Source of the DNA: a virus
Direction: 5' to 3' (one strand)
Virus record (IMG/VR): IMGVR_UViG_3300029203_000004
Length of the DNA: 64,000 bases
The translations under genes and the position numbers were made by a program. This document shows, in pieces, positions 18,144-47,862 of this stretch. The notes under the pieces were generated by a model. It was not told the origin of the DNA and ran no database searches. It saw only the letters and a list, made by a program, of their open reading frames with translations. Each line of letters begins with the position of its first letter. Position 1 is the stretch's first letter.

Positions 18144-19088
18144 TTAGCAATTGCAACCACAGTTGTCACCAGCAGCATAACCTGCACCAAAACCAGCCAT
18201 GAACGGATAACCTCCATAGCAACAATTTGGGTTAGGCACTATATAGGATGGAACTGGGCACGGAGCCTTAAGTTGTCCAACTATATTTGCAGTCTGAGCC
18301 TGTTGAGAAGCAGCCAGAGCCAAATTGCTGTTTTCCTGTCTAAGTGCATCTATCTTGTTTTGCATTTCACGCATTTCAAGCTGACAGAATTTATCATTGA
18401 TGATAGCTGTTTGAGCGTCTATCTTTGCGCCAAGAATGTTAAACTGAGTGTTTGCATTGCTTGTCAAAGTATTGGTCTGCTCTACAGTAGCCAAACGGCT
18501 ATCACATCCTTGACGTTCAATAGCTGTACGGATATCGCAGCAGCAAGAAGCAAGCTGAGAACCGATAGCTGCACTATTGGACTGAATTGAGTTGATGATC
18601 TGTTGAGAGGAAAGACCTACTTGGTTACCAACTTGCTGAATCTGTCCTTGAATTTGGCAGATAGCATTCTGCAACTGTTGAGTAGAGCAGTTCAAAGAAC
18701 TAGCCAACTGATTGATAGCTGTTCCGTTTCCTTGAATAGCGTTCATCAACAATTCACGTCCTGCTTCATTGTTCAATTGAGCAGGGATTCCGTTTGCTCC
18801 ATTGCCAAACCCGTTACCGAATCCGTTACCACCCCACAGGAAGAAGAGCAGGATAATCCAGATCCACCAACAACCAGCACCACCCCAAGCGTCTTGATTG
18901 TTTTTATTGCTCATAAGAGCGGCAACCATATTGGGGTCTAATCCTTTATTCTGCAACAGTGCAGGAATCATTGACATAATACCTGCGCTTTCTCCAGCGG
19001 CAGGATTGTCGAACATAAAAATTTTGTCTGAACCCATAATATTGTAATTTAATGTGTGTGTATTATAACTCCCGTAAAGACTGTGCAC
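18144..19088 (-). CDS. Membrane-anchored Gln/Asn-rich coiled-coil protein with a Cys-rich C-terminus
   Basis: Single hydrophobic span GCWWIWIILLFFLWGG, a (GNGF)n linker, a long Q/N/S-rich heptad-like region, and a tail CCYGGYPFMAGFGAGYAAGDNCGCNC. Alternative start at 19037 (MGSDKIF). Confidence 0.6.
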   Translation of the reverse strand: MHSLYGSYNTHTLNYNIMGSDKIFMFDNPAAGESAGIMSMIPALLQNKGLDPNMVAALMSNKNNQDAWGGAGCWWIWIILLFFLWGGNGFGNGFGNGANGIPAQLNNEAGRELLMNAIQGNGTAINQLASSLNCSTQQLQNAICQIQGQIQQVGNQVGLSSQQIINSIQSNSAAIGSQLASCCCDIRTAIERQGCDSRLATVEQTNTLTSNANTQFNILGAKIDAQTAIINDKFCQLEMREMQNKIDALRQENSNLALAASQQAQTANIVGQLKAPCPVPSYIVPNPNCCYGGYPFMAGFGAGYAAGDNCGCNC

Positions 19089-19141: not shown

Positions 19142-20124
19142 TCTGATTATCCGTTTATGCACCTGTTATATTCGCAATTACTAGTCTGTCAAAGAGTTTG
19201 TCTCCAAAATACCGTCTGTTTAATTTGTAAATAAACTCGTTGAGATACAACTGTAAGTATTTCCTTTTGATTTTATGGTAGTTGCCCAGCAATGTCCGTT
19301 TTGCATTACTGATTGCGATATGCACCCATTTGAGTGTTTCCTTGGTGGTTTTGGCGTCTGATTTCTCGGTGACGTGCAATTCCACCAGATCGGAGATGTC
19401 AACGTAAGAAGTGCTTTTGTCCGAAAATACGATGGCATCATCCTCCATGCAGTCCCTGACCACGCCGTTGATTCCTTCACTTTGATGGCTATCCAGTACC
19501 CTGGCCTTGAAATAACGCACATGCTTCTCCTTTTTGCCCGTTTCGATATCTTCCAACGGGGTGCTTTCGGCCATCACCGCAACGTTCTGCTTTCCCTCGG
19601 CTCCCCGGCCACGTGTACCCTTGCCTCGCTCGATTTCCTTACTGGCCACCGAAAAGTAACCCTCATCCAGTTCTATCATCCCTTCCAGTGTATACCTTGC
19701 ATCCCGGTTGCCCATCGCCCTGCGGAGTTTGTGTACCATCGCCCATACCGGTTCGTAACGCTTCAATCCTAATTGCTTCTGGAGTTCGTTGGTGGAGAAT
19801 CCCTTTTTTGTGCAACTCATCAGGAACATCGTTTTGTACCACACCAGAAACGGCAGCTTGGAGCTCTCCATGATCGTACCGCTGCGCAACGAGGTGCGGA
19901 AACGGCAACCTTTGCATTCATAACTCCATTTACCCTGTAACCAATAATGGGAAGTGCCCCCGCATCGCTTGCAGACAACCCCTTCCTTATCACGCTGCTC
20001 CTTGAAATGCAAACGACAATCTTCCTCCGAACCGAAATGAGCCGTAAAACTGAATATGTTCATAATCCCTGCTTTTTGAGCGCTAATATACTAAAAATAT
20101 TAGGTGTGTTTGCGGAGAATCAGA
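19142..20124 (-). mobile_element. IS1595-family insertion sequence (983 bp)
   Basis: Terminal inverted repeats TCTGATTATCCG (19142-) and TCTGATTCTCCG (reverse complement of 20113-20124). Flanked by a perfect 8-bp direct repeat AATAAAAA (19134-19141 and 20125-20132). Clearly more GC-rich than its surroundings. Confidence 0.8.
19155..20063 (-). CDS. IS1595-family (ISXO2-like) DDE transposase
   Basis: N-terminal zinc ribbon CKRCGG...CKGCRF, then the ...DEGYF... core typical of DDE_Tnp_IS1595. It fills the IS defined by the IRs and TSD. Confidence 0.85.
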   Translation of the reverse strand: MNIFSFTAHFGSEEDCRLHFKEQRDKEGVVCKRCGGTSHYWLQGKWSYECKGCRFRTSLRSGTIMESSKLPFLVWYKTMFLMSCTKKGFSTNELQKQLGLKRYEPVWAMVHKLRRAMGNRDARYTLEGMIELDEGYFSVASKEIERGKGTRGRGAEGKQNVAVMAESTPLEDIETGKKEKHVRYFKARVLDSHQSEGINGVVRDCMEDDAIVFSDKSTSYVDISDLVELHVTEKSDAKTTKETLKWVHIAISNAKRTLLGNYHKIKRKYLQLYLNEFIYKLNRRYFGDKLFDRLVIANITGA

Positions 20125-20253
20125 AATAAAAATTTCGCAGTATAACCTATTGTGTTTCAGATAGTTTAAAGTTGTTAAAATAAGTTATTTGCTTGTGTGT
20201 TGTTTTTCCTATTCGTATATTAGCGCAATAATTTTAAAATAGAGGAATTGAAG

Positions 20254-20472
20254 ATGAAAGAATTAAAAAAATGGAATAATAATCCAATAAAGATTACGTA
20301 TTTAATACCTAGTGGAAACAAGTATGCTTATATAAAATTAGGTGACACTGTTGATCTGACGAACGGAACATATAAAATAACCGCTTTGGATAATGAAGAA
20401 AACATTTTCCAAGCGGTTAATATGGAGAATAAAGATGATTGTGTTACAATGTATGCGTATGAGGTTGTCTAG
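20254..20472 (+). CDS. Hypothetical small protein
   Basis: ATG at 20254; 72-aa ORF convergent with the minus-strand genes. Confidence 0.4.
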   Translation: MKELKKWNNNPIKITYLIPSGNKYAYIKLGDTVDLTNGTYKITALDNEENIFQAVNMENKDDCVTMYAYEVV

Positions 20473-20837
20473 CTTTTAGTCTTGTATTTGCCCCTTGACT
20501 TCTTTGGACGTATAAGCCCGTTGTTTTTAAGAGCATCCAATGTTTCTTTCAAATAAACGGGTTTTGTCATTCCTTGTACTCTCACGGGAGATAATAACGG
20601 TTGTACGGGATGAAACTTAGTGCCTTTGTATGTAAGCCTTGCAAACTCGGTGTCACTCACATCAAGATACTTTATGGCATTTTCTCTATCAAAATAAGAC
20701 GGTATGATAGTTGATTTGTTTATTGCGTCAGTAAGGAAGTTGAACTGTTCCGCATCAACATTCGAGTTTCCGCTTTTCAATGCTAGAGATATTCCGTCAA
20801 GTAAGGAAGCTAATATAGTGTTATAATTCATGCCCAT
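20469..20837 (-). CDS. Hypothetical protein (basic C-terminus)
   Basis: 122-aa ORF, last of the run downstream of the RT. Confidence 0.55.
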   Translation of the reverse strand: MGMNYNTILASLLDGISLALKSGNSNVDAEQFNFLTDAINKSTIIPSYFDRENAIKYLDVSDTEFARLTYKGTKFHPVQPLLSPVRVQGMTKPVYLKETLDALKNNGLIRPKKSRGKYKTKS

Positions 20838-20840
20838 GAC

Positions 20841-21167
20841 TTACTCGATAGATGATATGTTTGCTGTTCCCGTAACACTCACCTTGCTTCCTGGTGTGAC
20901 TGAAAAATATTCCACCGTTCCTGCCGGGAGAAGCATTCCTGTTGGTGATATTCTGCTTGATCTGCTTTTCGTTTCCTGTACCAATGAGATACGGCATCCA
21001 TCCGATGTCGCTACTCTTATAAGGTTTGACAATGCTGTGTATTCCTTGTCGGTTACATCTTCCGATGCTGATATTCTTGCAGCTACGATACCTTTTAACG
21101 CTTCATCCTTTGAAGCGTTTTTGGTGGAGAAATACCCACCTATCTGTTGTTTATCATTGTTTTCCAT
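20841..21167 (-). CDS. Hypothetical protein
   Basis: 108-aa ORF, 3 nt from the next gene. Confidence 0.55.
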   Translation of the reverse strand: MENNDKQQIGGYFSTKNASKDEALKGIVAARISASEDVTDKEYTALSNLIRVATSDGCRISLVQETKSRSSRISPTGMLLPAGTVEYFSVTPGSKVSVTGTANISSIE

Positions 21168-21510
21168 ATCCTTTCAAGTAAGATTGTTTCACACTTTCGG
21201 CAAACTCGTTCAGCTTTACATAATCCGGGTCAAGTTTGTTTAAAATACCTTTTCTGAGAGCCGCTTCTTCCTCACCGTTGGGAAATTCATCCTTTATGGC
21301 GGCATCTACCGTTTTGTCGTATGATACAGGGTTCTTTACACGCTGTACATCGGCTTTCCACTTTTTGACGAACTTTTCCTGTACAATATTTCCCATATCG
21401 TCCGTTTCGGGTTCGTCAACTTGTTCAATGTTTAAATGAACATTGCTATATCCAGTGCCTAAATCAAAGATAAAGGCAGGCTTCTCGTCAAAAATCAAAC
21501 CTCTTTCCAT
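21154..21510 (-). CDS. Hypothetical acidic protein
   Basis: 118-aa ORF starting 3 nt after the RT stop. Its acidic composition is unlike Avd. Confidence 0.55.
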   Translation of the reverse strand: MERGLIFDEKPAFIFDLGTGYSNVHLNIEQVDEPETDDMGNIVQEKFVKKWKADVQRVKNPVSYDKTVDAAIKDEFPNGEEEAALRKGILNKLDPDYVKLNEFAESVKQSYLKGYGKQ

Positions 21511-21513
21511 AGT

Positions 21514-22803
21514 TTAAATATCTAATGTTCCATCAAAATAATAACCCCTATTGAATTTTATGACAACATCTTCCAATGGTAAAAGGCTTTTGTCTACTTG
21601 GGAAAGGAATGCTCCTAATGTTTCGTATCCGCCTTTCACAAAGCATTTTTCTCCTTTGAACAGTATCTGCATTCTTACCCATGTACTATTGTCCTTCTTT
21701 GTAGATGGTCTTACATCAAAATCAAGAATGTCTATATGCTCATCGACAAGTTTGTCTATCTTTATATCCTTTCCGTCAAACTTTCTTGACACTCTTATAT
21801 TTAAGTCACTAATCTTTGTCATGTGGCTATTATTATTAACTAAAACTTTATTAATTAAGTTTTTAGAATCACAGTGCATCAACATACCCATATAACTCGT
21901 AATTGATTTTGGGTTATTACGTTTTGACGCAAAGTTTTTCTTTATTCTCTTTCTTATTTTGGTATGACCGGGAGTAAAGACAAATCCACCGAAATCTATC
22001 CCTTCTGAAACGGGGAATATCCTGTAATTTTTCTTCATCTCCAACTTTTTTTCATACCACAGGTAATTTCTTATCCTCCACAGCCATTCATGCAACTGTT
22101 TCTTGTCGTGGGATAATATCACCATATCATCGGCAAATCTGAAATAATGCTTTACTTTGAACTGCTCCTTTATAACATGATCCAAAGACCTTAATACCAA
22201 ATGGCTTCCTATCTGAGCGTCAGGATTGCCAATAGCCAGACCTTTGTTGCTGTAATTAAGCGTATTCATAAGCCATAACGCATCCCTGTCTTTCAAGTCT
22301 TTGCTATATGCCTTCTTGTAAACGCTGTGTCTTACGGACGGATAAAACTTCTTAATATCCATTTTCAAAACGTATATTTTTCCGTTTTTGTCCATTTCAA
22401 GCAATGTCCGTTTCATCTTTCTCACAAGGGAATGCTTTTTAACCTTACTTGTAATACCCCTTTTGGGCAGACAGTTATATGAATCAAGTGTAAGGCTTTT
22501 TGTCCATCTGTCCATCATGGGTACCAAAAGGCTGTGCTGGATAATCCTGTCCGGGTAAAACGGGAGTTTGTGTATCTCCCTTACCTTTCCTGCATCAGTC
22601 ACTTTCTCTATCACCTCATACTTGCTTACATGGTATGATTTGTCTTTGAGCATCTGATAAACATTCTGATGATATTCATCCTTATGTTTCTCATAATCCC
22701 TCACACCCCTGTGATTCCTCTTTCCTTTCTTTGCCTTTTCAGCAGCAGAGATAATATTATCCATACTGCCTATCGTTTCAAAAATATTATTCAATCTTTT
22801 CAT
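21514..22803 (-). CDS. DGR reverse transcriptase with a C-terminal extension
   Basis: RT motifs: KMDIKKFYPS, GLAIGNPDAQIGSHL (DGR-type IGNxx[SA]Q motif 4), RFADDMVIL (YxDD-type). It lies directly downstream of a template repeat with A-specific mismatches to a VR. About 100 residues after the thumb region carry no RT motif. Confidence 0.9.
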   Translation of the reverse strand: MKRLNNIFETIGSMDNIISAAEKAKKGKRNHRGVRDYEKHKDEYHQNVYQMLKDKSYHVSKYEVIEKVTDAGKVREIHKLPFYPDRIIQHSLLVPMMDRWTKSLTLDSYNCLPKRGITSKVKKHSLVRKMKRTLLEMDKNGKIYVLKMDIKKFYPSVRHSVYKKAYSKDLKDRDALWLMNTLNYSNKGLAIGNPDAQIGSHLVLRSLDHVIKEQFKVKHYFRFADDMVILSHDKKQLHEWLWRIRNYLWYEKKLEMKKNYRIFPVSEGIDFGGFVFTPGHTKIRKRIKKNFASKRNNPKSITSYMGMLMHCDSKNLINKVLVNNNSHMTKISDLNIRVSRKFDGKDIKIDKLVDEHIDILDFDVRPSTKKDNSTWVRMQILFKGEKCFVKGGYETLGAFLSQVDKSLLPLEDVVIKFNRGYYFDGTLDI

Positions 22804-22962
22804 CTTACGTGCTTTTCTTTGTCCGTTGAGCCAAAGATAACTAACTTTCCATATACCTACAACTGTAAATGTACTAATAAGTTCCCATTCTCAAACAATG
22901 GGTTGTCTTGACATTTTCCATCTTCCTGACGAGGCTTCTGTATAGCAGTAATTTTTTTTAGC

Positions 22963-23072
22963 ACGTTAGCTGCCACCGATGTTCGTGTTCGCATTCGAAG
23001 GGGCATTGTTCGCATTACCATTCCGCAGAGAACAATTGTCGTTGTCCGACTTACCACCAAAGTAAACACCAC
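22963..23072 (-). repeat. DGR template repeat (TR)
   Basis: 110-bp gap-free alignment to 23246-23355 (offset 283). 18 of 19 mismatches fall at TR adenines (minus-strand sense). AAY-rich, with an in-frame TAA, so non-coding. Confidence 0.85.
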
Positions 23073-23205
23073 CATTCTACAGACCGCCTTTTTTCAACTA
23101 ACCGCCTTTGACAGACTTATTTAACTTTGCTGACGCATTTGGTTAGATTTTTAATTATGCAAACTTAAACATTATTAATATATTTTGCAAGTTTTGGGAG
23201 GGGGA

Positions 23206-23224
23206 TTTTTCACTTCGTGAAAAA
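23206..23224 (-). promoter_or_regulatory. Hairpin abutting the stop codon of the DGR target, just 3' of the VR
   Basis: TTTTTCAC-ttc-GTGAAAAA 8-bp stem, flanked by G-runs (gggaggggg / gggttggg). The position matches the VR-proximal hairpin/cruciform described for DGR homing. Confidence 0.45.
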
Positions 23225-25324
23225 TTAGGGTTGGGTTATTGTACAACGAAAGCCGCCACCGAAGTTCGTGAACGCAACCGAAGGGGCATGGTACGCACTA
23301 CCAGGCCGCAGAGAACAATGGTCGTTGATCGACAGACCACCAAAGAAAACACCACGCCTTCCAATCTTACCCGAACCTGCATTTCCCGTAAACCAGTTGT
23401 AATGGCATTCCCCCGTGTGAAGATTGCTTCCCTTGACCTCTCCAATAAGAGAGTTCTTAAAGTTCTTCGTTATGCATCCTTCACCTCTAGCCATAGAACC
23501 GACAAATTCATATGTATTCTCAAAACCGTAAGATTCCCCAGGATTCTTTTCTGTGGCTACATTGTCCGTAGTCAGATTGTTCACGTCATAGGTCTGATAG
23601 ATGTCTATGGATGTAGAATCGTGCATGACACAATCTATCCCACTGTACCACATCCATATATCTCCCCACCCGGCAATACGTCCGCGAATGATAGGCTGTG
23701 TGAAGCATATCTCTATTTCACGGTTTGTAACTGCCGCATTGTCAGGAATACTCCATCCGCTAGTTACAGTTGCATTGACAAACTTGGCTACGATACCCGA
23801 CATCTCCCCGTCAGCCAATCCGTTATGACCTTGGAAGTTGTAGTATTTGTATTTTGTGCTTTCATATTCAAACTCGGTGTCGGGAGCGACATTGTGTTCC
23901 TTTGCGTATGACATGGCAAGCTGCGCTTCAAACATCTTCATGCAAGGACGGTAGTTGTTTATAAGCTGTGAAAAATTGTAAGCAGTTCCTGTTTCTGATG
24001 CTTTAAATCCTTGCCCGTTCATCTTGTAATACACATAAGTCTGACCGTCCGCCTTCTTGAATCTGACGCCTGTCATTTTCCCCCAGCTTGACGCATCGGG
24101 GGCTGAATCGTTGGATGATATTCCTTTTCCGCAAACAGACTGTGCGTGTAGGTCTTTTGTTCTAAACTTAATAAAGAGAAGCGTACACCACACTTCAAGG
24201 TCAAGGGCGAAGGCATTGGCATAAGGATAGTTCTTCGTAATGTCCGGGTTCTTTGCCCTGGCGTATTTCTCAAAATCAAAACGTGATACATTTGTCGTAG
24301 GCCATCCATTTCCTTCCATTATGTTTACGCCTAGATTTCCTACTGATGTTGCTCCTTTTACCGTGTTGTCAAAAATAGATCTCTGCTTCCCATCCTTTAT
24401 CGTGGAGTAACCGATACTCATTCCGAACGGTTTTATCTCTATGGCCGTATCGCCACCGTATGTAAACGGAGCGTCACTGACTAGCCTTCTTTCGTATGTA
24501 TCATCCGTTCCTCCGTTGATTATCCAGAAAGGCTTGGTGTTTACAAGCATAATATCGCTTCCGTCATCTGTTACATCAGTTCCGTCAATAACAATATTTG
24601 ACGGGCTACCGTCAGTCATTTTGAAGAAATTGGTCTGGTCAAGGAATCCTACTACCTTACCGTCCTTTACCTTTGCCGCACGGAAAGAGTTGAGGATAGG
24701 ATGTGATGTCTTGAACTCTTCCTTTCCTATCCATGTCTGAAATACAGGGTCTGTCTGCCCTCTTCTCATTTCCACTCCATATATATTCCCCTGCTGCATC
24801 TTTATCTGTTCGAGAAGCGTTTTGTAGTCATTGGTGAAATCATTTGTGGATAACTCCTTACCGTCCACCTTGTCTACCTTCTTGTCTAGGGCTGTTTTCT
24901 GTGCGGTGGATACAGGCTTTTCTGCATCGGACGTATTGTCCACATTAGACAGACCTATATTGTCTTTCGTTATATTGACATTCCCTGTCCTGTAAGACTG
25001 TTCGGCATTACCTTTCACGCCTATGACGGTATTCTTCTGTGCGCCTTTCTCTATCCCGTCAAGTTTGGTTTTTAACTGGGTAGTAAAGTTGTTGTCGGTA
25101 TGAACATAGTTTTCGTCCATTACCATGCCTTGTCTTATCTTGGACACCGTGACGGATTTGTTCTCTTTAGGGCTTCCCGTCACACATGGTATCATCTCTT
25201 CTCCCGTAGCGGTCTCAACGGGAGGCATCTGTGAAATTTTAAGATTATCTTCCATTATTTTTATAGTATTAATATACGATCTTACACCAAATAAATTTTG
25301 ATAACTTTTAGTTATAAAAGTCAT
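23225..25324 (-). CDS. DGR target: tail-fibre / receptor-binding protein with C-terminal VR
   Basis: N-terminal fibre-like repeats (NFTTQLKTKLDGIEKGA..., LSTNDFTNDYK). The C-terminus carries the VR. Alternative ATG at 25255 (MEDNLKISQ). Confidence 0.8.
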   Translation of the reverse strand: MTFITKSYQNLFGVRSYINTIKIMEDNLKISQMPPVETATGEEMIPCVTGSPKENKSVTVSKIRQGMVMDENYVHTDNNFTTQLKTKLDGIEKGAQKNTVIGVKGNAEQSYRTGNVNITKDNIGLSNVDNTSDAEKPVSTAQKTALDKKVDKVDGKELSTNDFTNDYKTLLEQIKMQQGNIYGVEMRRGQTDPVFQTWIGKEEFKTSHPILNSFRAAKVKDGKVVGFLDQTNFFKMTDGSPSNIVIDGTDVTDDGSDIMLVNTKPFWIINGGTDDTYERRLVSDAPFTYGGDTAIEIKPFGMSIGYSTIKDGKQRSIFDNTVKGATSVGNLGVNIMEGNGWPTTNVSRFDFEKYARAKNPDITKNYPYANAFALDLEVWCTLLFIKFRTKDLHAQSVCGKGISSNDSAPDASSWGKMTGVRFKKADGQTYVYYKMNGQGFKASETGTAYNFSQLINNYRPCMKMFEAQLAMSYAKEHNVAPDTEFEYESTKYKYYNFQGHNGLADGEMSGIVAKFVNATVTSGWSIPDNAAVTNREIEICFTQPIIRGRIAGWGDIWMWYSGIDCVMHDSTSIDIYQTYDVNNLTTDNVATEKNPGESYGFENTYEFVGSMARGEGCITKNFKNSLIGEVKGSNLHTGECHYNWFTGNAGSGKIGRRGVFFGGLSINDHCSLRPGSAYHAPSVAFTNFGGGFRCTITQP
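23246..23355 (-). repeat. DGR variable repeat (VR)
   Basis: Encodes GVFFGGLSINDHCSLRPGSAYHAPSVAFTNFGGGFR, ending 6 codons before the target stop. It differs from the TR almost only at TR-adenine positions. Confidence 0.85.
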
Positions 25325-25497
25325 AATTATTTTGGTGCTAAGGTAAGAATAAAATGCCTAAATTTATATATATTATAAGTTTTTTTTTGCAAATTAAGCA
25401 TTAAGATAAAAGTTCCTCTTTTATCTTTGGTGTCCGCTTGTATATCAGTGCCGATGATAATCAATAAAAATAGTTTTGCATTCCAATATTTTTTTCG

Positions 25498-25505
25498 TAT
25501 CTTTG
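25498..25505 (+). promoter_or_regulatory. -7 promoter box (TAtcTTTG) upstream of tnpB-1
   Basis: Exact TAnnTTTG match 27 nt upstream of the ATG at 25532. A second match (TAgtTTTG) lies at 25471-25478. Confidence 0.35.
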
Positions 25506-25531
25506 AGTATTAAAAATCAAATAAAATCGCC

Positions 25532-26770
25532 ATGTTGAGAGCTTATAAATATAGAATCTATCCGACAGAAGAACAGAAGGTTTTGCTTGCCAAGACCTTC
25601 GGCTGCTGCCGCTTTGTCTATAACTGGGCACTCAAAATGAAGATTGAAGCCTACAAGCAGGAAAAGAAATCTATTGGCAATGTTGAACTGACCAATCGCA
25701 TGAAGAGGGAATTGAAAACGGAATATGAGTGGTTAGGTGAGGTAAATTCGCAATCTTTGCAAAGTGCGTTGAGAAACCTTGACGCCGCCTTTAAGAACTT
25801 TTTCCGTGATACTCATGCAGTAGGCTTTCCTAAATTAAAAAACAAAAAGGACAGGCAGAGTTTTCAGTGCCCCCAGCATTGTGTCGTGGATTTCGGCAAA
25901 GGAACAATAACCATACCGAAAGTAAAGGATATTCCTGCTGTGTTTCACCGCAAATTCAAGGGAATGGTCAAAACCGTCACCATCAGCATGACACCATCGA
26001 GAAAATACTTCGCTTCCGTATTGGTTGACACAGACATTGAAGAACTTCCGGTAACACCGATACATGACGATACGTGTTTGGGTATAGATTTGGGTATCAA
26101 ATCACTTGCCGTATGTTCTGATGGGAGAACGTTTGACAACCCGAAAAACCTGCAACGAAACCTTGACCGTTTAAAATTGCTTCAAAAGCGGTTGAGCCGC
26201 AAACAGAAAGGTTCTTCAAACCGCAACAAGGCACGCATCCGCGTAGCTAGGCTGCATGAACATATTGCCAATTGCCGTAAAGATAACCTTCACAAAATCA
26301 CCCATACTCTCACGCACGATAGCCAAGTGCGTACCATCTGCATGGAGGATTTGAACGTGAAAGGAATGATGCAAAACCACCACTTGGCACAGGCAGTAGG
26401 TGACGCATCTTTCGGGATGTTTCTTACGCTGCTTAAATACAAATGCAGTTGGTATGGTGTGAACCTCATTCAGATAAACCGATTTGCCCCAAGTTCAAAG
26501 ACTTGCGGAAAATGCGGTTATGTGTATAAAGGATTGAAATTGAGCGATCGCAGTTGGATCTGTCCGGAATGTGGCACACACCATGACCGTGACTTCAATG
26601 CAGCTTGCAATATAAAGGAATTTGGCTTAAAAGCCCTACCCACGGAGCGTGGGAAAGTTAAGCCTGTGGACTGTCCTCTTGTGGATGACCGACCTCGTGT
26701 CCTAAAAAGCAATGACAGGAAGAAGCAGGAAAAGAGAGGATGTGTTGGCATCTCCAATCCGCTAAACTAA
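25532..26770 (+). CDS. tnpB: TnpB (IS200/IS605-family OrfB, RuvC + zinc finger), copy 1
   Basis: MLRAYKYRIYPTEEQ N-terminus. RuvC D/E/D in GIDLGIK, CMEDLNVKGM, HDRDFNAACNI. Zinc finger CGKCG...CPECG. No tnpA adjacent. Confidence 0.9.
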   Translation: MLRAYKYRIYPTEEQKVLLAKTFGCCRFVYNWALKMKIEAYKQEKKSIGNVELTNRMKRELKTEYEWLGEVNSQSLQSALRNLDAAFKNFFRDTHAVGFPKLKNKKDRQSFQCPQHCVVDFGKGTITIPKVKDIPAVFHRKFKGMVKTVTISMTPSRKYFASVLVDTDIEELPVTPIHDDTCLGIDLGIKSLAVCSDGRTFDNPKNLQRNLDRLKLLQKRLSRKQKGSSNRNKARIRVARLHEHIANCRKDNLHKITHTLTHDSQVRTICMEDLNVKGMMQNHHLAQAVGDASFGMFLTLLKYKCSWYGVNLIQINRFAPSSKTCGKCGYVYKGLKLSDRSWICPECGTHHDRDFNAACNIKEFGLKALPTERGKVKPVDCPLVDDRPRVLKSNDRKKQEKRGCVGISNPLN

Positions 26771-46673: not shown

Positions 46674-46772
46674 AGGTAATTATATACGTTTATACACATA
46701 CATATTGACGTTTCACCGTCCCGACTACTGCCGACCACTCCACGTCCTCAACCCCTTCTACCAAGGGTGATA
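46674..46772 (-). ncRNA. 3' omega-RNA scaffold / right-end region of the tnpB-2 element
   Basis: Covers the last 25 sense codons plus the stop of tnpB-2 and the 16 nt after the stop. About 95% identical (5 mismatches in 99 nt) to the gene-less copy at 61330-61428. Homology stops at AATTACCT, which I take as the element boundary. Confidence 0.5.
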
Positions 46773-47862
46773 TTAGTCCGAACCGTTTGATGTTTACCGA
46801 AGCGAGAATGTCACGATCATTGTGCCTTCCGCATTTCGGGCAAACCCATTCACGGTCACTGAGTTTCAATTCACTATTAACGTATCCGCATATACACGTC
46901 TTGGAACTTGCTTCAAAACGTCCGATACGTATAAGGTTGCGTCCATACCATTCGCACTTGTATTCAAGCTGTCGGAAAAACTCGCTCCATGAAACGGATG
47001 ATATGGATTTTGCAAGACGGTGGTTTTTCAACATACCCTTTACATTCAAATCCTCAATGATTATCGTTTGGTTTTCACGGACAATCTTTGATGTGACTTG
47101 ATGCAGGAAATTGTTGCGTTGGTTGGAAACCTTCTCATACTGTCTTGCCAATATTTTCCTTGCCCGTTCTCTTCGGTTGGAACCTTTCTTTGTCTTTGAG
47201 AATCTTCTTTGCAACACCTTTAGTCTTGTTTCCGATTTCTCAAGATATTTGGGATTGGCATACACATCACCGTTCGAACAAACTGCAAAATCCTTTATAC
47301 CGACATCTATACCGATAGACGTATCATATCTGACAGCAGGCTTTACAGGTATTTCCTTTCCATCGTCAACAAGAACAGAAATGAAATATTTACCTGTTGG
47401 TGTCTTGCTTACCGTGACAGAACATACCTTACCGTCAAACTTTCTGTTCGGAAAGAATTTAACCCATCCGATCTTTGGAAGTCTTACCTTGTTGTTGTCA
47501 AGGTCAACAGACACCGAATTTATAGCCTTGTATGACTGTCGGCTGTAATGCTTCGCCTTGAAATTTGGGAAGCCTGTCTTTTCACGGAAGAACTTCACGA
47601 ACGCGCTGTCCATATTTCTTATGGATTGTTGCAGGCACTCGTTTGATACTTCCGAAAGCCATTTCTTTCCATCTTCCTTTTTAAGTTCTGTAAGCATCTT
47701 AGCCAGTTCAACCCATCCTATCTTCGTCTTGTCACGCTGATACGCTTCTATACGTTTACCGAGCATATAGTTATATACAAACCTACAACACCCGAAAGAT
47801 TTGTTGAAGAAAACAATTTGCTCAGGAGTAGGATTAAGTCTATATTTATATGCTCGTTTCAT
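46690..47862 (-). CDS. tnpB: TnpB (IS200/IS605-family OrfB), copy 2
   Basis: MKRAYKYRLNPTPEQ. RuvC D/E/D in GIDVGIK, IIEDLNVKGM, NDRDILASVNI. Zinc finger C.C...CPKCG. Roughly half identical to copy 1 by eye. No tnpA. Confidence 0.9.
   Translation of the reverse strand: MKRAYKYRLNPTPEQIVFFNKSFGCCRFVYNYMLGKRIEAYQRDKTKIGWVELAKMLTELKKEDGKKWLSEVSNECLQQSIRNMDSAFVKFFREKTGFPNFKAKHYSRQSYKAINSVSVDLDNNKVRLPKIGWVKFFPNRKFDGKVCSVTVSKTPTGKYFISVLVDDGKEIPVKPAVRYDTSIGIDVGIKDFAVCSNGDVYANPKYLEKSETRLKVLQRRFSKTKKGSNRRERARKILARQYEKVSNQRNNFLHQVTSKIVRENQTIIIEDLNVKGMLKNHRLAKSISSVSWSEFFRQLEYKCEWYGRNLIRIGRFEASSKTCICGYVNSELKLSDREWVCPKCGRHNDRDILASVNIKRFGLISPLVEGVEDVEWSAVVGTVKRQYVCV

Follow-up and report, generated by a model that had tools for sequence, protein, structure and literature searches.

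Wu et al. (2018) described a diversity-generating retroelement (DGR) architecture A and a lineage 3 that lacks the accessory gene avd and is found mostly in Bacteroides and its relatives. They also reported that approximately 20% of DGR reverse transcriptases (RTs) carry C-terminal extensions of unknown function. In the better characterized Bordetella ribonucleoprotein (RNP), the RNA contains a 'cPRT Stop' consisting of an avd:Sp duplex, a short stem-loop, and adenosines making A-minor contacts, and an Avd-binding stem-loop sits between the template repeat (TR) and the duplex strand; the survey accompanying that work was limited to Avd-containing DGRs (bioRxiv 10.1101/2023.10.23.563531). We analyzed a DGR in a 64,000-nt stretch of viral DNA, IMG/VR record IMGVR_UViG_3300029203_000004 (hereafter the window), which belongs to an uncultured, long-tailed gut phage of roughly 95 kb. 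We conclude, with a probability of approximately 93%, that this is a functional DGR of the Avd-less, Bacteroidota-associated kind. The element itself is a new example of an already known kind of DGR and not a new kind. Since DGRs are common in gut phage tail fibers, its presence is unsurprising.

The TR (22963-23072) and the variable repeat (VR; 23246-23355), both on the minus strand, aligned without gaps over 110 nt at an offset of 283, reproducing in full the positions, strand, and spacing given in an original prediction made from the sequence alone. The repeats differ at 19 columns. The TR has an adenine at 18 of these, and the remaining difference is a G-to-A change at column 27 (TR 23046, VR 23329). 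Adenines account for 28 of the 110 TR positions, and the hypergeometric probability that at least 18 of 19 mismatches fall at A is approximately 1e-12. A scan of the whole 64 kb with the TR adenines treated as wildcards gave 1 mismatch at the 82 non-A positions for the VR and 44 of 82 for the runner-up. No second VR was found across the 64-kb window; approximately 30 kb of the phage genome lies outside it. The VR encodes residues 657-693 of a 699-aa target protein. Its column 110 corresponds to residue 693, so that the repeat ends 6 codons before the stop, as had been predicted. The codon-by-codon reading of the TR in the same prediction, including the in-frame TAA, was likewise correct.

The initiation of mutagenic homing (IMH) segment at the 3′ end of the VR (23246-23262, minus strand; TCGGTGGCGGCTTTCGT) opens with the GC-rich sequence TCGGTGGC. 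The TR ends in a non-identical IMH* (22963-22979, minus strand; TCGGTGGCAGCTAACGT), which includes the in-frame TAA. This pairing of an IMH at the VR 3′ end with a differing IMH* at the TR 3′ end is characteristic of DGRs. At columns 102, 106, and 107, the TR has A, A, and A, and the VR has G, T, and T; the same difference was present in 53, 56, and 55, respectively, of 56 unique TR/VR pairs from related loci (described below). Because these columns are nearly fixed across the 56 pairs, they are markers distinguishing IMH from IMH* and not products of mutagenesis. The predicted tally of 19 mismatches, with 18 at TR adenines, therefore stands as a count, but no more than 15 of the 18 are attributable to mutagenesis. 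Adenine variation ends at column 93, and the mutagenized span is columns 10-93, corresponding to window positions 23263-23346 in the VR, to the mutagenesis template 22980-23063 in the TR, and to residues 660-688 of the target. The span contains 25 mutable TR adenines, 12 in first, 13 in second, and none in third codon positions, giving a theoretical repertoire of approximately 1.1e15 DNA variants or 5e14 protein variants.

The original prediction had set its own refutation test, namely whether variation occurs at VR positions matching TR adenines. We ran this test on assembled relatives instead of reads. An IMG/VR scan yielded 80 related loci, with target proteins mostly 90-98% identical and contigs of up to approximately 98 kb. 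TR and RT were both present in 60 of the 80, and mismatches were again almost all at TR adenines. Over the 56 unique pairs, the VR differed at 54.3% of TR-A sites (778/1433) and at 1.7%, 0.9%, and 1.1% of C, G, and T sites, respectively, making substitution approximately 40-fold commoner at TR-A sites. Column entropy in the VR was 1.47 bits for A columns and 0.18 bits for other columns, and VR variation was confined to the TR-A columns, as the prediction required. The VR is hypervariable (74 distinct sequences among 78), whereas the TR is nearly invariant (13 distinct among 60).

Comparison of the closest genomes shows how recent these changes are. Over the 1200 nt upstream of the VR and the 1400 nt downstream of the TR, two relatives (L009 and L015) are identical, but their VRs differ at 18 A sites. 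The window and L009 have 1 flank difference, and their VRs differ at 16 A sites and 2 non-A sites. Overall, genomes with identical flanks have 15-20 A-site differences in the VR. The TR of the window is identical to that of nine relatives, all of which carry the RT, and at least 8 different VRs occur among the TR-identical genomes on almost identical flanks. Diversification in this lineage is thus recent and TR-dependent, and the predicted active-looking DGR diversifying a fiber-like C terminus is supported, since identical-flank genomes carry different VRs. TR and RT are absent in about a quarter of close relatives. The closest pair of these TR/RT-less genomes has 5 flank differences and only 2 VR differences; as a single pair, it is a weak control.

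The same data dispose of a simpler explanation for the repeat, that an ordinary partial duplication of the fiber 3′ end has diverged in the normal way next to an unrelated RT. Such a duplication would account for the existence of a repeat, and for nothing else that we observed. It would not produce an adenine bias with p of approximately 1e-12, the approximately 40-fold excess of substitution at TR-A sites over 56 pairs, an invariant TR paired with a hypervariable VR, or template adenines that avoid codon position 3. We regard it as extremely improbable.

The RT is encoded by an intact 429-aa open reading frame (ORF) at 21514-22803 on the minus strand. The ORF begins 160 nt past the TR, after a 159-nt spacer, confirming the prediction that an RT gene follows the TR. 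The RT core (21817-22803, minus strand; residues 1-329) contains the catalytic FADD sequence and a motif 4 of IGNPDAQ. The protein matches RVT_1 in Pfam and phrog_1423 (7.5e-77), and over the aligned region it is 100% identical to a cluster of 1703 sequences, the commonest variant. Its best relative in the PDB is the Bordetella DGR RT (8ub7, E 3e-21), followed by a group II intron RT (E 6e-6) and chains deposited as retron-type RT (E 3e-5). The nearest annotated RTs among GenBank phages are those of crAss-like phages (36-40% identity), and the crAssE-Sib and Hankyphage RTs match over nearly their full length at approximately 28-29% identity. In bacterial data with one genome per species, the best relatives were in Bacteroides (57%), Phocaeicola, and Prevotellaceae, and then across the Bacteroidota.

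An RT of another class (a retron, group II intron, or defense RT such as Drt) that does not act on the repeat might be suspected from the NCBIfam matches to group II, retron St85, Drt3a, and Drt2 models. All of these were sub-threshold and far below the curated cut-offs (e.g. 64 versus 300 bits), whereas the best solved relative is the Bordetella DGR RT. Furthermore, an A-biased TR/VR pair adjoined the RT in 37 of 39 loci from relatives (29 genomic and 10 viral), with the TR 100-250 nt upstream of the RT in those 37 loci. The relatives with A-biased pairs directly upstream of the RT have RT identities of 35-57% in Bacteroidota genomes and approximately 45-50% in other phages, so that Bacteroidota homologues consistently adjoin such pairs. 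A related-locus scan with protein P0137 returned nothing. Rfam showed no match to an intron RNA domain or to retron msr/msd, and the search over 20000-26000 gave no Rfam match of any kind. By sequence, the RT belongs to the DGR group and not to the retron or group II classes, and we consider an unrelated RT to have a negligible probability.

Neither the VR-TR spacer (173 nt) nor the TR-RT spacer (159 nt) contains an ORF. Within the part of the window examined for avd, namely these spacers and the neighboring small ORFs, nothing resembled Avd, and the small ORFs had no Pfam or NCBIfam match. The gap between the TR and the downstream duplex strand described below is only approximately 17 nt, too short for an Avd-binding stem-loop. 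In the loci of relatives, the nearest VR often lies only approximately 100-120 nt before the TR, leaving no room for avd.

The RT instead has a C-terminal domain of approximately 100 aa (residues 330-429; 21514-21816 including the stop codon, minus strand). Ordinary RTs of the clade are 317-320 aa long and cover 75% of the query, and a subclade of RTs of 425-460 aa has the extension in common, down to approximately 29% identity. In short-RT relatives, the same domain is encoded by a separate ORF of 96-103 aa whose start codon overlaps the RT stop by 3-21 nt (e.g. L171 4447-4746 and L180 4447-4737). A survey of 80 species genomes by tblastn and ORF checks found the domain fused in 8, overlapping the RT stop in 42, nearby in approximately 22, and without a match in 8, two of which are cut contigs. 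When 1.8 billion representatives were searched with a single sequence, both the fused and the stand-alone forms were found. The separately encoded proteins are basic (mean pI 8.8). They are not the CH1 protein of Wu et al. (2018), which is acidic and 160-169 aa long.

An AlphaFold2 (AF2) model of the domain, with a mean predicted local distance difference test score (pLDDT) of 85.7, has five strands, the third and fourth being separated by a helix, which is the order found in the oligonucleotide/oligosaccharide-binding (OB) fold. Foldseek gave only non-significant matches (E 0.07-1), the best being mostly OB-fold domains of RPA, SSB, RuvBL DII, and HIN. No Pfam or NCBIfam family matched the domain or its stand-alone homologues, and we found no description of it in the literature, of which our coverage was incomplete. 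Fusion to the RT argues that the domain works with the RT, and it may replace Avd. Because the extension is homologous to a separate ORF in related genomes, cassettes regarded as 'accessory-free' may not be so. We tentatively propose, at odds a little short of even, that the 'accessory-free' DGRs of Bacteroidota and their phages use a different accessory, a beta-rich OB-like protein of approximately 100 aa whose ORF overlaps the RT stop in most members and is joined to the RT in this phage, Hankyphage, and others. Together with the conserved RNA scaffold described below, comprising the 'cPRT Stop'-like duplex, hairpin, and A-run and the TTAGTA/TTGGTA stem, it would constitute a second type of DGR RNP. 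If so, the present RT would be a natural single-chain version, convenient for reconstitution.

A second small protein was considered as an Avd substitute and rejected. The 118-aa ORF at 21154-21510 (minus strand; orf118) encodes an acidic protein (pI 4.8), is retained at 97-100% identity in the relatives without TR and RT, and lies on the opposite side of the TR-RT module in other phages. By eye, it resembles ORFs of 111 aa that other phages with a related DGR carry between the TR and the target gene (L081 3299-3634 and L088 3329-3664). If the 118-aa and 111-aa ORFs are homologous, the TR-RT module flanks the same gene on different sides, which suggests that the module moves as a unit.

The RNA surrounding the TR is predicted to contain a conserved structure. 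An upstream strand, GGCGGTCTGTAG (23077-23088), and a downstream strand approximately 17 nt past the TR, CTATACAGAAGCC (22933-22945), can form a long-range duplex that brackets the TR, all on the minus strand. Hairpin P1, with the 4-bp stem CGTC-AGGAA-GATG (22919-22931), directly follows the downstream strand and is itself followed by an A-run, GAAAATG (22912-22918). Both the minimum free energy (MFE) and the centroid folds of the single window RNA recovered the duplex. A comparison of native with non-native pairing by RNAduplex was uninformative (-22.1 versus -19.7 kcal/mol) because long flanks pair spuriously, and it was replaced by an anchored alignment of 28 DGRs, in which the strands were anchored on an independent GGYKG motif and on the hairpin with its A-run. 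In this alignment, 95.3% of cells were paired, as opposed to 69.8% after shuffling and 35-44% when the partner strand was slid, the percentage paired being inflated by the choice of the strands partly for their complementarity. Changes on both sides were seen at 13 of 16 duplex pairs. The duplex, hairpin, and A-run together resemble the Bordetella 'cPRT Stop', and by this analogy may have a similar role.

Alignment of the TR-RT spacers of distant relatives brought out conserved blocks and further structure. RNAalifold with 9 sequences predicted three more helices, in which 20 of 24 pairs had compensatory changes. These comprise P2, CCCATT...AATGGG (22884-22902), and P3/P4 (22839-22883), which contains the conserved TATTAGTA motif and the loop AGTTGTA; a GGCTCAACGG motif follows at 22823-22832, all on the minus strand. 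A covariance model built from these sequences, R1, had one match in the window (22821-22934, minus strand) and also matched 10 more distant DGRs outside the training set with E below 0.01. All R1 matches are immediately upstream of the RT gene and on its strand. Both the RNA scaffold and the fused accessory-like domain concern the lineage as a whole.

The target gene (23225-25324, minus strand) is a 699-aa ORF encoding a protein that resembles a tail fiber or receptor-binding protein (RBP). Judged from sequence, translation probably begins at Met24 (25255), since a length of 676 aa is usual among the homologues; the 23 extra N-terminal residues occur only in genomes with a TnpB insertion upstream. 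The PHROG tail-fiber matches are limited to the N-terminal part (residues 60-180). An AF2 model of residues 190-699 had a predicted template modeling score (pTM) of 0.80 and a pLDDT of 42-58 over the VR. Foldseek of the model against the PDB gave nothing below E 0.07. Against BFVD, the top match was a 99%-identical fragment annotated 'Receptor binding complex', followed by crAss-like tail collar fiber proteins (E 3e-9 to 3.5e-4) and a TvpA-annotated protein (E 5e-3). A 99%-identical target fragment is deposited as 'Myoviridae sp. ct04y17'. At the sequence level, the RBP of crAssE-Sib is a homologue (E 1e-28); its authors modeled that protein as TaqVP-like (PMC11054128). The target also contains the motif RRGVxFGG..CSLR..A..AP......GGGFRC, and two distant homologues carry an Mtd_N domain. 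The 'tail fiber' label thus draws on the N-terminal PHROG matches, the gene neighborhood, and the modeled likeness to crAss-like tail collar fibers, and is to be read as a predicted function. The original prediction expected a C-type lectin or formylglycine-generating enzyme (FGE)-like fold at the C terminus. The structure prediction was run over residues 190-699 and did not confirm this fold, the VR being modeled with low pLDDT. Pfam, a PDB sequence search, and two PDB profile searches gave no C-type lectin support for the target. Indirectly, this fold, which is that of the DGR variable proteins Mtd, TvpA, and TaqVP, is supported by the BFVD matches to crAss-like DGR targets and to the TvpA-annotated protein, by the homology to the crAssE-Sib RBP, and by the motif given above. 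An apparent 'insertion' of approximately 265 nt in the target gene of many relatives proved to be tblastn running on into the TR and not an intron.

On the basis of these elements, the DGR might operate as follows. A transcript starting in the VR-TR spacer would run through the TR into the RT leader, and would fold so that the strand just upstream of the TR pairs with the strand just downstream, followed by the small hairpin and A-run. The RT, with its fused accessory domain of approximately 100 aa in place of Avd, would copy the TR into cDNA, with misincorporation opposite the 25 template adenines of columns 10-93. Replacement of the VR by this cDNA as far as the IMH boundary would then change residues 660-688 of the tail-fiber-like protein. 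The parts of this scheme that we infer are cis-priming, the functions given to the RNA elements and to the C-terminal domain, and the binding of a receptor by the target.

Several observations weigh against our conclusion that the window contains a functional DGR of the Avd-less, Bacteroidota-associated kind, in addition to the selection of duplex strands mentioned above. The whole 313-nt RNA folds no better than shuffled sequences (z = +0.53). An Sp:TR primer duplex was sought by eye, and a CTGC/GCAG pairing (TR columns 100-103) is possible in the window, but no conserved equivalent was found in relatives, and no priming site is claimed. A C-type lectin fold for the VR-bearing domain, plausible as it may be, was not confirmed by modeling. 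Motif 4 of the RT is IGNPDAQ and not [ILV]GxxxSQ, with the serine replaced by alanine and the glutamine kept. The canonical form of this motif is not universal in DGR RTs, as crAssE-Sib has SP (PMC11054128). Most members of the present clade have SQ, and its closest members have AQ or SQ. Since adenine mutagenesis is seen directly, we treat motif 4 as diagnostic and not as defining. In two RT homologues (P0125, 59% identity, and P0126, 56%), the corresponding sequence is IGWVLGV, as in P0125, or IGWSIGV, with both the serine and the glutamine lost. Finally, the activity of the DGR is supported at the level of the lineage or population, from assembled relatives, and not for this one genome, and the non-A mismatch at column 27 is compatible with a VR that has not been fully rewritten since the TR changed.

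A rival explanation is that the element is a DGR by descent but inactive in this genome, with a frozen VR whose mismatches are historical. Besides the G-to-A mismatch, this explanation draws on the absence of TR and RT from about a quarter of close relatives, which shows that loss is common in the lineage, and on the two insertion sequence (IS) elements that flank the region in the window. However, the RT is encoded by an intact ORF and matches the commonest variant exactly, nine relatives that carry the RT have the same TR, and the genomes with this TR have at least 8 VRs on almost identical flanks. Moreover, all of the RNA elements are intact, and neither IS insertion interrupts the cassette. 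We therefore consider inactivity unlikely, and favor a functional element.

The template itself also changes. Column 27 is polymorphic for A and G in related TRs, with A in about two thirds. Where the TR has G (17 pairs), the VR base is likewise G in 14 pairs, with A in 2 and T in 1. Given this polymorphism, the lone G-to-A difference in the window could have been left by a TR with A at this column, or could be a rare error at a base other than A. TR lineages also differ at columns 34, 57, 66, 70, 76, 77, and 79, gaining or losing adenines; with column 27, these A/non-A switching columns correspond to window positions 23046, 23039, 23016, 23007, 23003, 22997, 22996, and 22994. One variant TR (L055) has only 20 adenines. 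Because related TRs switch between A and non-A, the set of mutable sites evolves.

In the relatives lacking TR and RT, homology to the window ends within the VR-TR spacer and returns exactly at the RT stop codon. At least 3 types of junction were seen, with window breakpoints at approximately 23134, 23150, or 23096 and at 21510-21512. One group has the gap filled by a 211-aa homing endonuclease ORF with HNH_3, NUMOD4, and AP2 domains (L032 8213-8848; L063 8244-8879).

Other potential elements were noted around the repeats. An inverted repeat, ATTTTTCAC-GAA-GTGAAAAAT (23205-23225, minus strand), starts in the target stop codon, folds as DNA with -6.8 kcal/mol (z = -3.75), and is invariant among close relatives. 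It may act on the target side as a hairpin or cruciform, or serve as a terminator. In relatives further removed, GC-rich hairpins are found downstream of the VR. In the VR-TR spacer, the sequence TAAGTTTG (23160-23167, minus strand) matches TAnnTTTG, the consensus of the Bacteroidota -7 promoter box. A sigma-70 scan at 23160-23167 gave nothing, and we regard TAAGTTTG as a candidate promoter of the TR RNA. Two copies of AAGGCGGT, spaced 18 nt apart, lie just upstream of the TR (23101-23108 and 23083-23090, minus strand). The second copy belongs to the upstream duplex strand, and the first could give an alternative pairing register.

The phage genes in the window include a 2055-aa tape-measure protein, a match to an HK97-type major capsid protein (MCP), and an integrase-family gene. 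The large terminase subunit (TerL) is 31-33% identical to those of Dulem virus 40 and LoVEphage. A crAss-like host phage was rejected on the annotation of the tape-measure protein, MCP, and TerL. Megablast of 21000-26000 and 38000-62000 against GenBank phages gave nothing useful, and the phage lineage is not represented in that collection. The same target gene was present on more than 100 IMG/VR contigs, and the phage lineage appears to be abundant in the human gut.

Three IS-type genes are present in the 64 kb, many for a phage. Directly upstream of the target gene is an IS605-family TnpB gene (25532-26770, plus strand) with HTH_OrfB_IS605, OrfB_IS605, and Cas12f1-like TNB domains. Four relatives (L001, L008, L019, and L020) have it at the same site, and most others have it elsewhere or not at all. 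An IS1595-family transposase gene (19155-20063, minus strand) with DDE_Tnp_IS1595 and zinc ribbon domains lies between a 314-aa gene and the small genes downstream of the RT; as 0 of 80 related loci have a close copy there, this insertion looks specific to the present genome. A third transposase gene (46690-47862, minus strand; phrog_506, E 1e-129) is near the tape-measure gene within the minus-strand structural block. The 314-aa protein (18144-19088, minus strand; phrog_16490, function unknown) has a Gly/Trp-rich N-terminal part and a Cys-rich C terminus ending in CGCNC. Its gene is a conserved neighbor of the cassette, even in a distantly related phage (L088 5441-6418).

The locus is a clean natural example of DGR diversification, with approximately 60 near-identical genomes carrying almost as many different VRs. 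The relatives without TR and RT, often with a homing endonuclease gene in their place, provide a built-in negative control. The cassette also bears on a question open since 2018, how Avd-less DGRs work. Fusion of the RT to what is elsewhere a separately encoded small protein points to a candidate Avd replacement, and the covarying RNA suggests that a Bordetella-type cis-priming scaffold extends to an Avd-less lineage. Both ideas are testable in vitro with the single-polypeptide RT. Because of the AQ variant of motif 4, this clade may be overlooked by DGR finders that search for motifs.

The cassette has both similarities to and differences from the described systems. Like the DGR of Bordetella phage BPP-1 (mtd-avd-TR-brt), it makes adenine-specific TR-to-VR transfers into the 3′ end of a tail-fiber gene, has IMH/IMH* differences at the repeat 3′ ends, and has an RT whose closest relative of solved structure is that of BPP-1 (8ub7). 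In its RNA, too, sequences on either side of the TR form a duplex, with a short stem-loop and adenosines after it. Unlike BPP-1, it has no Avd and no space for an Avd-binding stem-loop; its RT has the extra C-terminal domain of approximately 100 aa and AQ instead of SQ in motif 4; the inverted repeat after the VR is AT-rich and approximately 20 nt beyond the IMH; and the target has no detectable sequence similarity to Mtd. It thus departs from the canonical Avd-dependent type (architecture B). The original description of the element as 'textbook' applies to the TR/VR signature but not to the missing avd, the IGNPDAQ motif 4, or the additional domain.

The DGRs of crAss-like phages (crAssphage LMMB, cr50_1/cr55_1/cr7_1, and crAssE-Sib) have the same order, target-VR(IMH)-TR(IMH*)-RT, without avd, and a similarly patchy presence among close relatives (PMC7290462). 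The target model resembles their tail collar fiber proteins. In crAssE-Sib, the RBP is homologous to the target and motif 4 of the RT is also non-canonical (PMC11054128). Nevertheless, the window phage is not crAss-like, and the RT match covers only residues 1 to approximately 310, with the exception of crAssE-Sib (13-428).

The Hankyphage DGR (Bacteroides phage p00, BK010646) is likewise Bacteroides-associated, with the order VR-TR-RT, no avd of approximately 120 aa, and a TTGGTAG motif in the TR-RT spacer. Its 434-aa RT aligns over the full length, including the C-terminal domain (hhalign probability 100%). The differences are an RT identity of only approximately 29%, a 64-aa ORF between the Hankyphage VR and TR, a hairpin and A-run that do not directly adjoin the duplex strand, and an unrelated phage of approximately 43 kb with a different target protein.

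With architecture A and lineage 3 of Wu et al. (2018), the cassette has in common the TR-RT core, the upstream target, and the lack of avd. What distinguishes it is the homology of its RT extension to a separate ORF of approximately 100 aa, which overlaps the RT stop in 42 of 80 genomes. With lineage 3 matched by architecture and not by tree, the order target-VR-TR-RT and the Bacteroidota relatives of the RT are those of the Avd-less Bacteroidota type.

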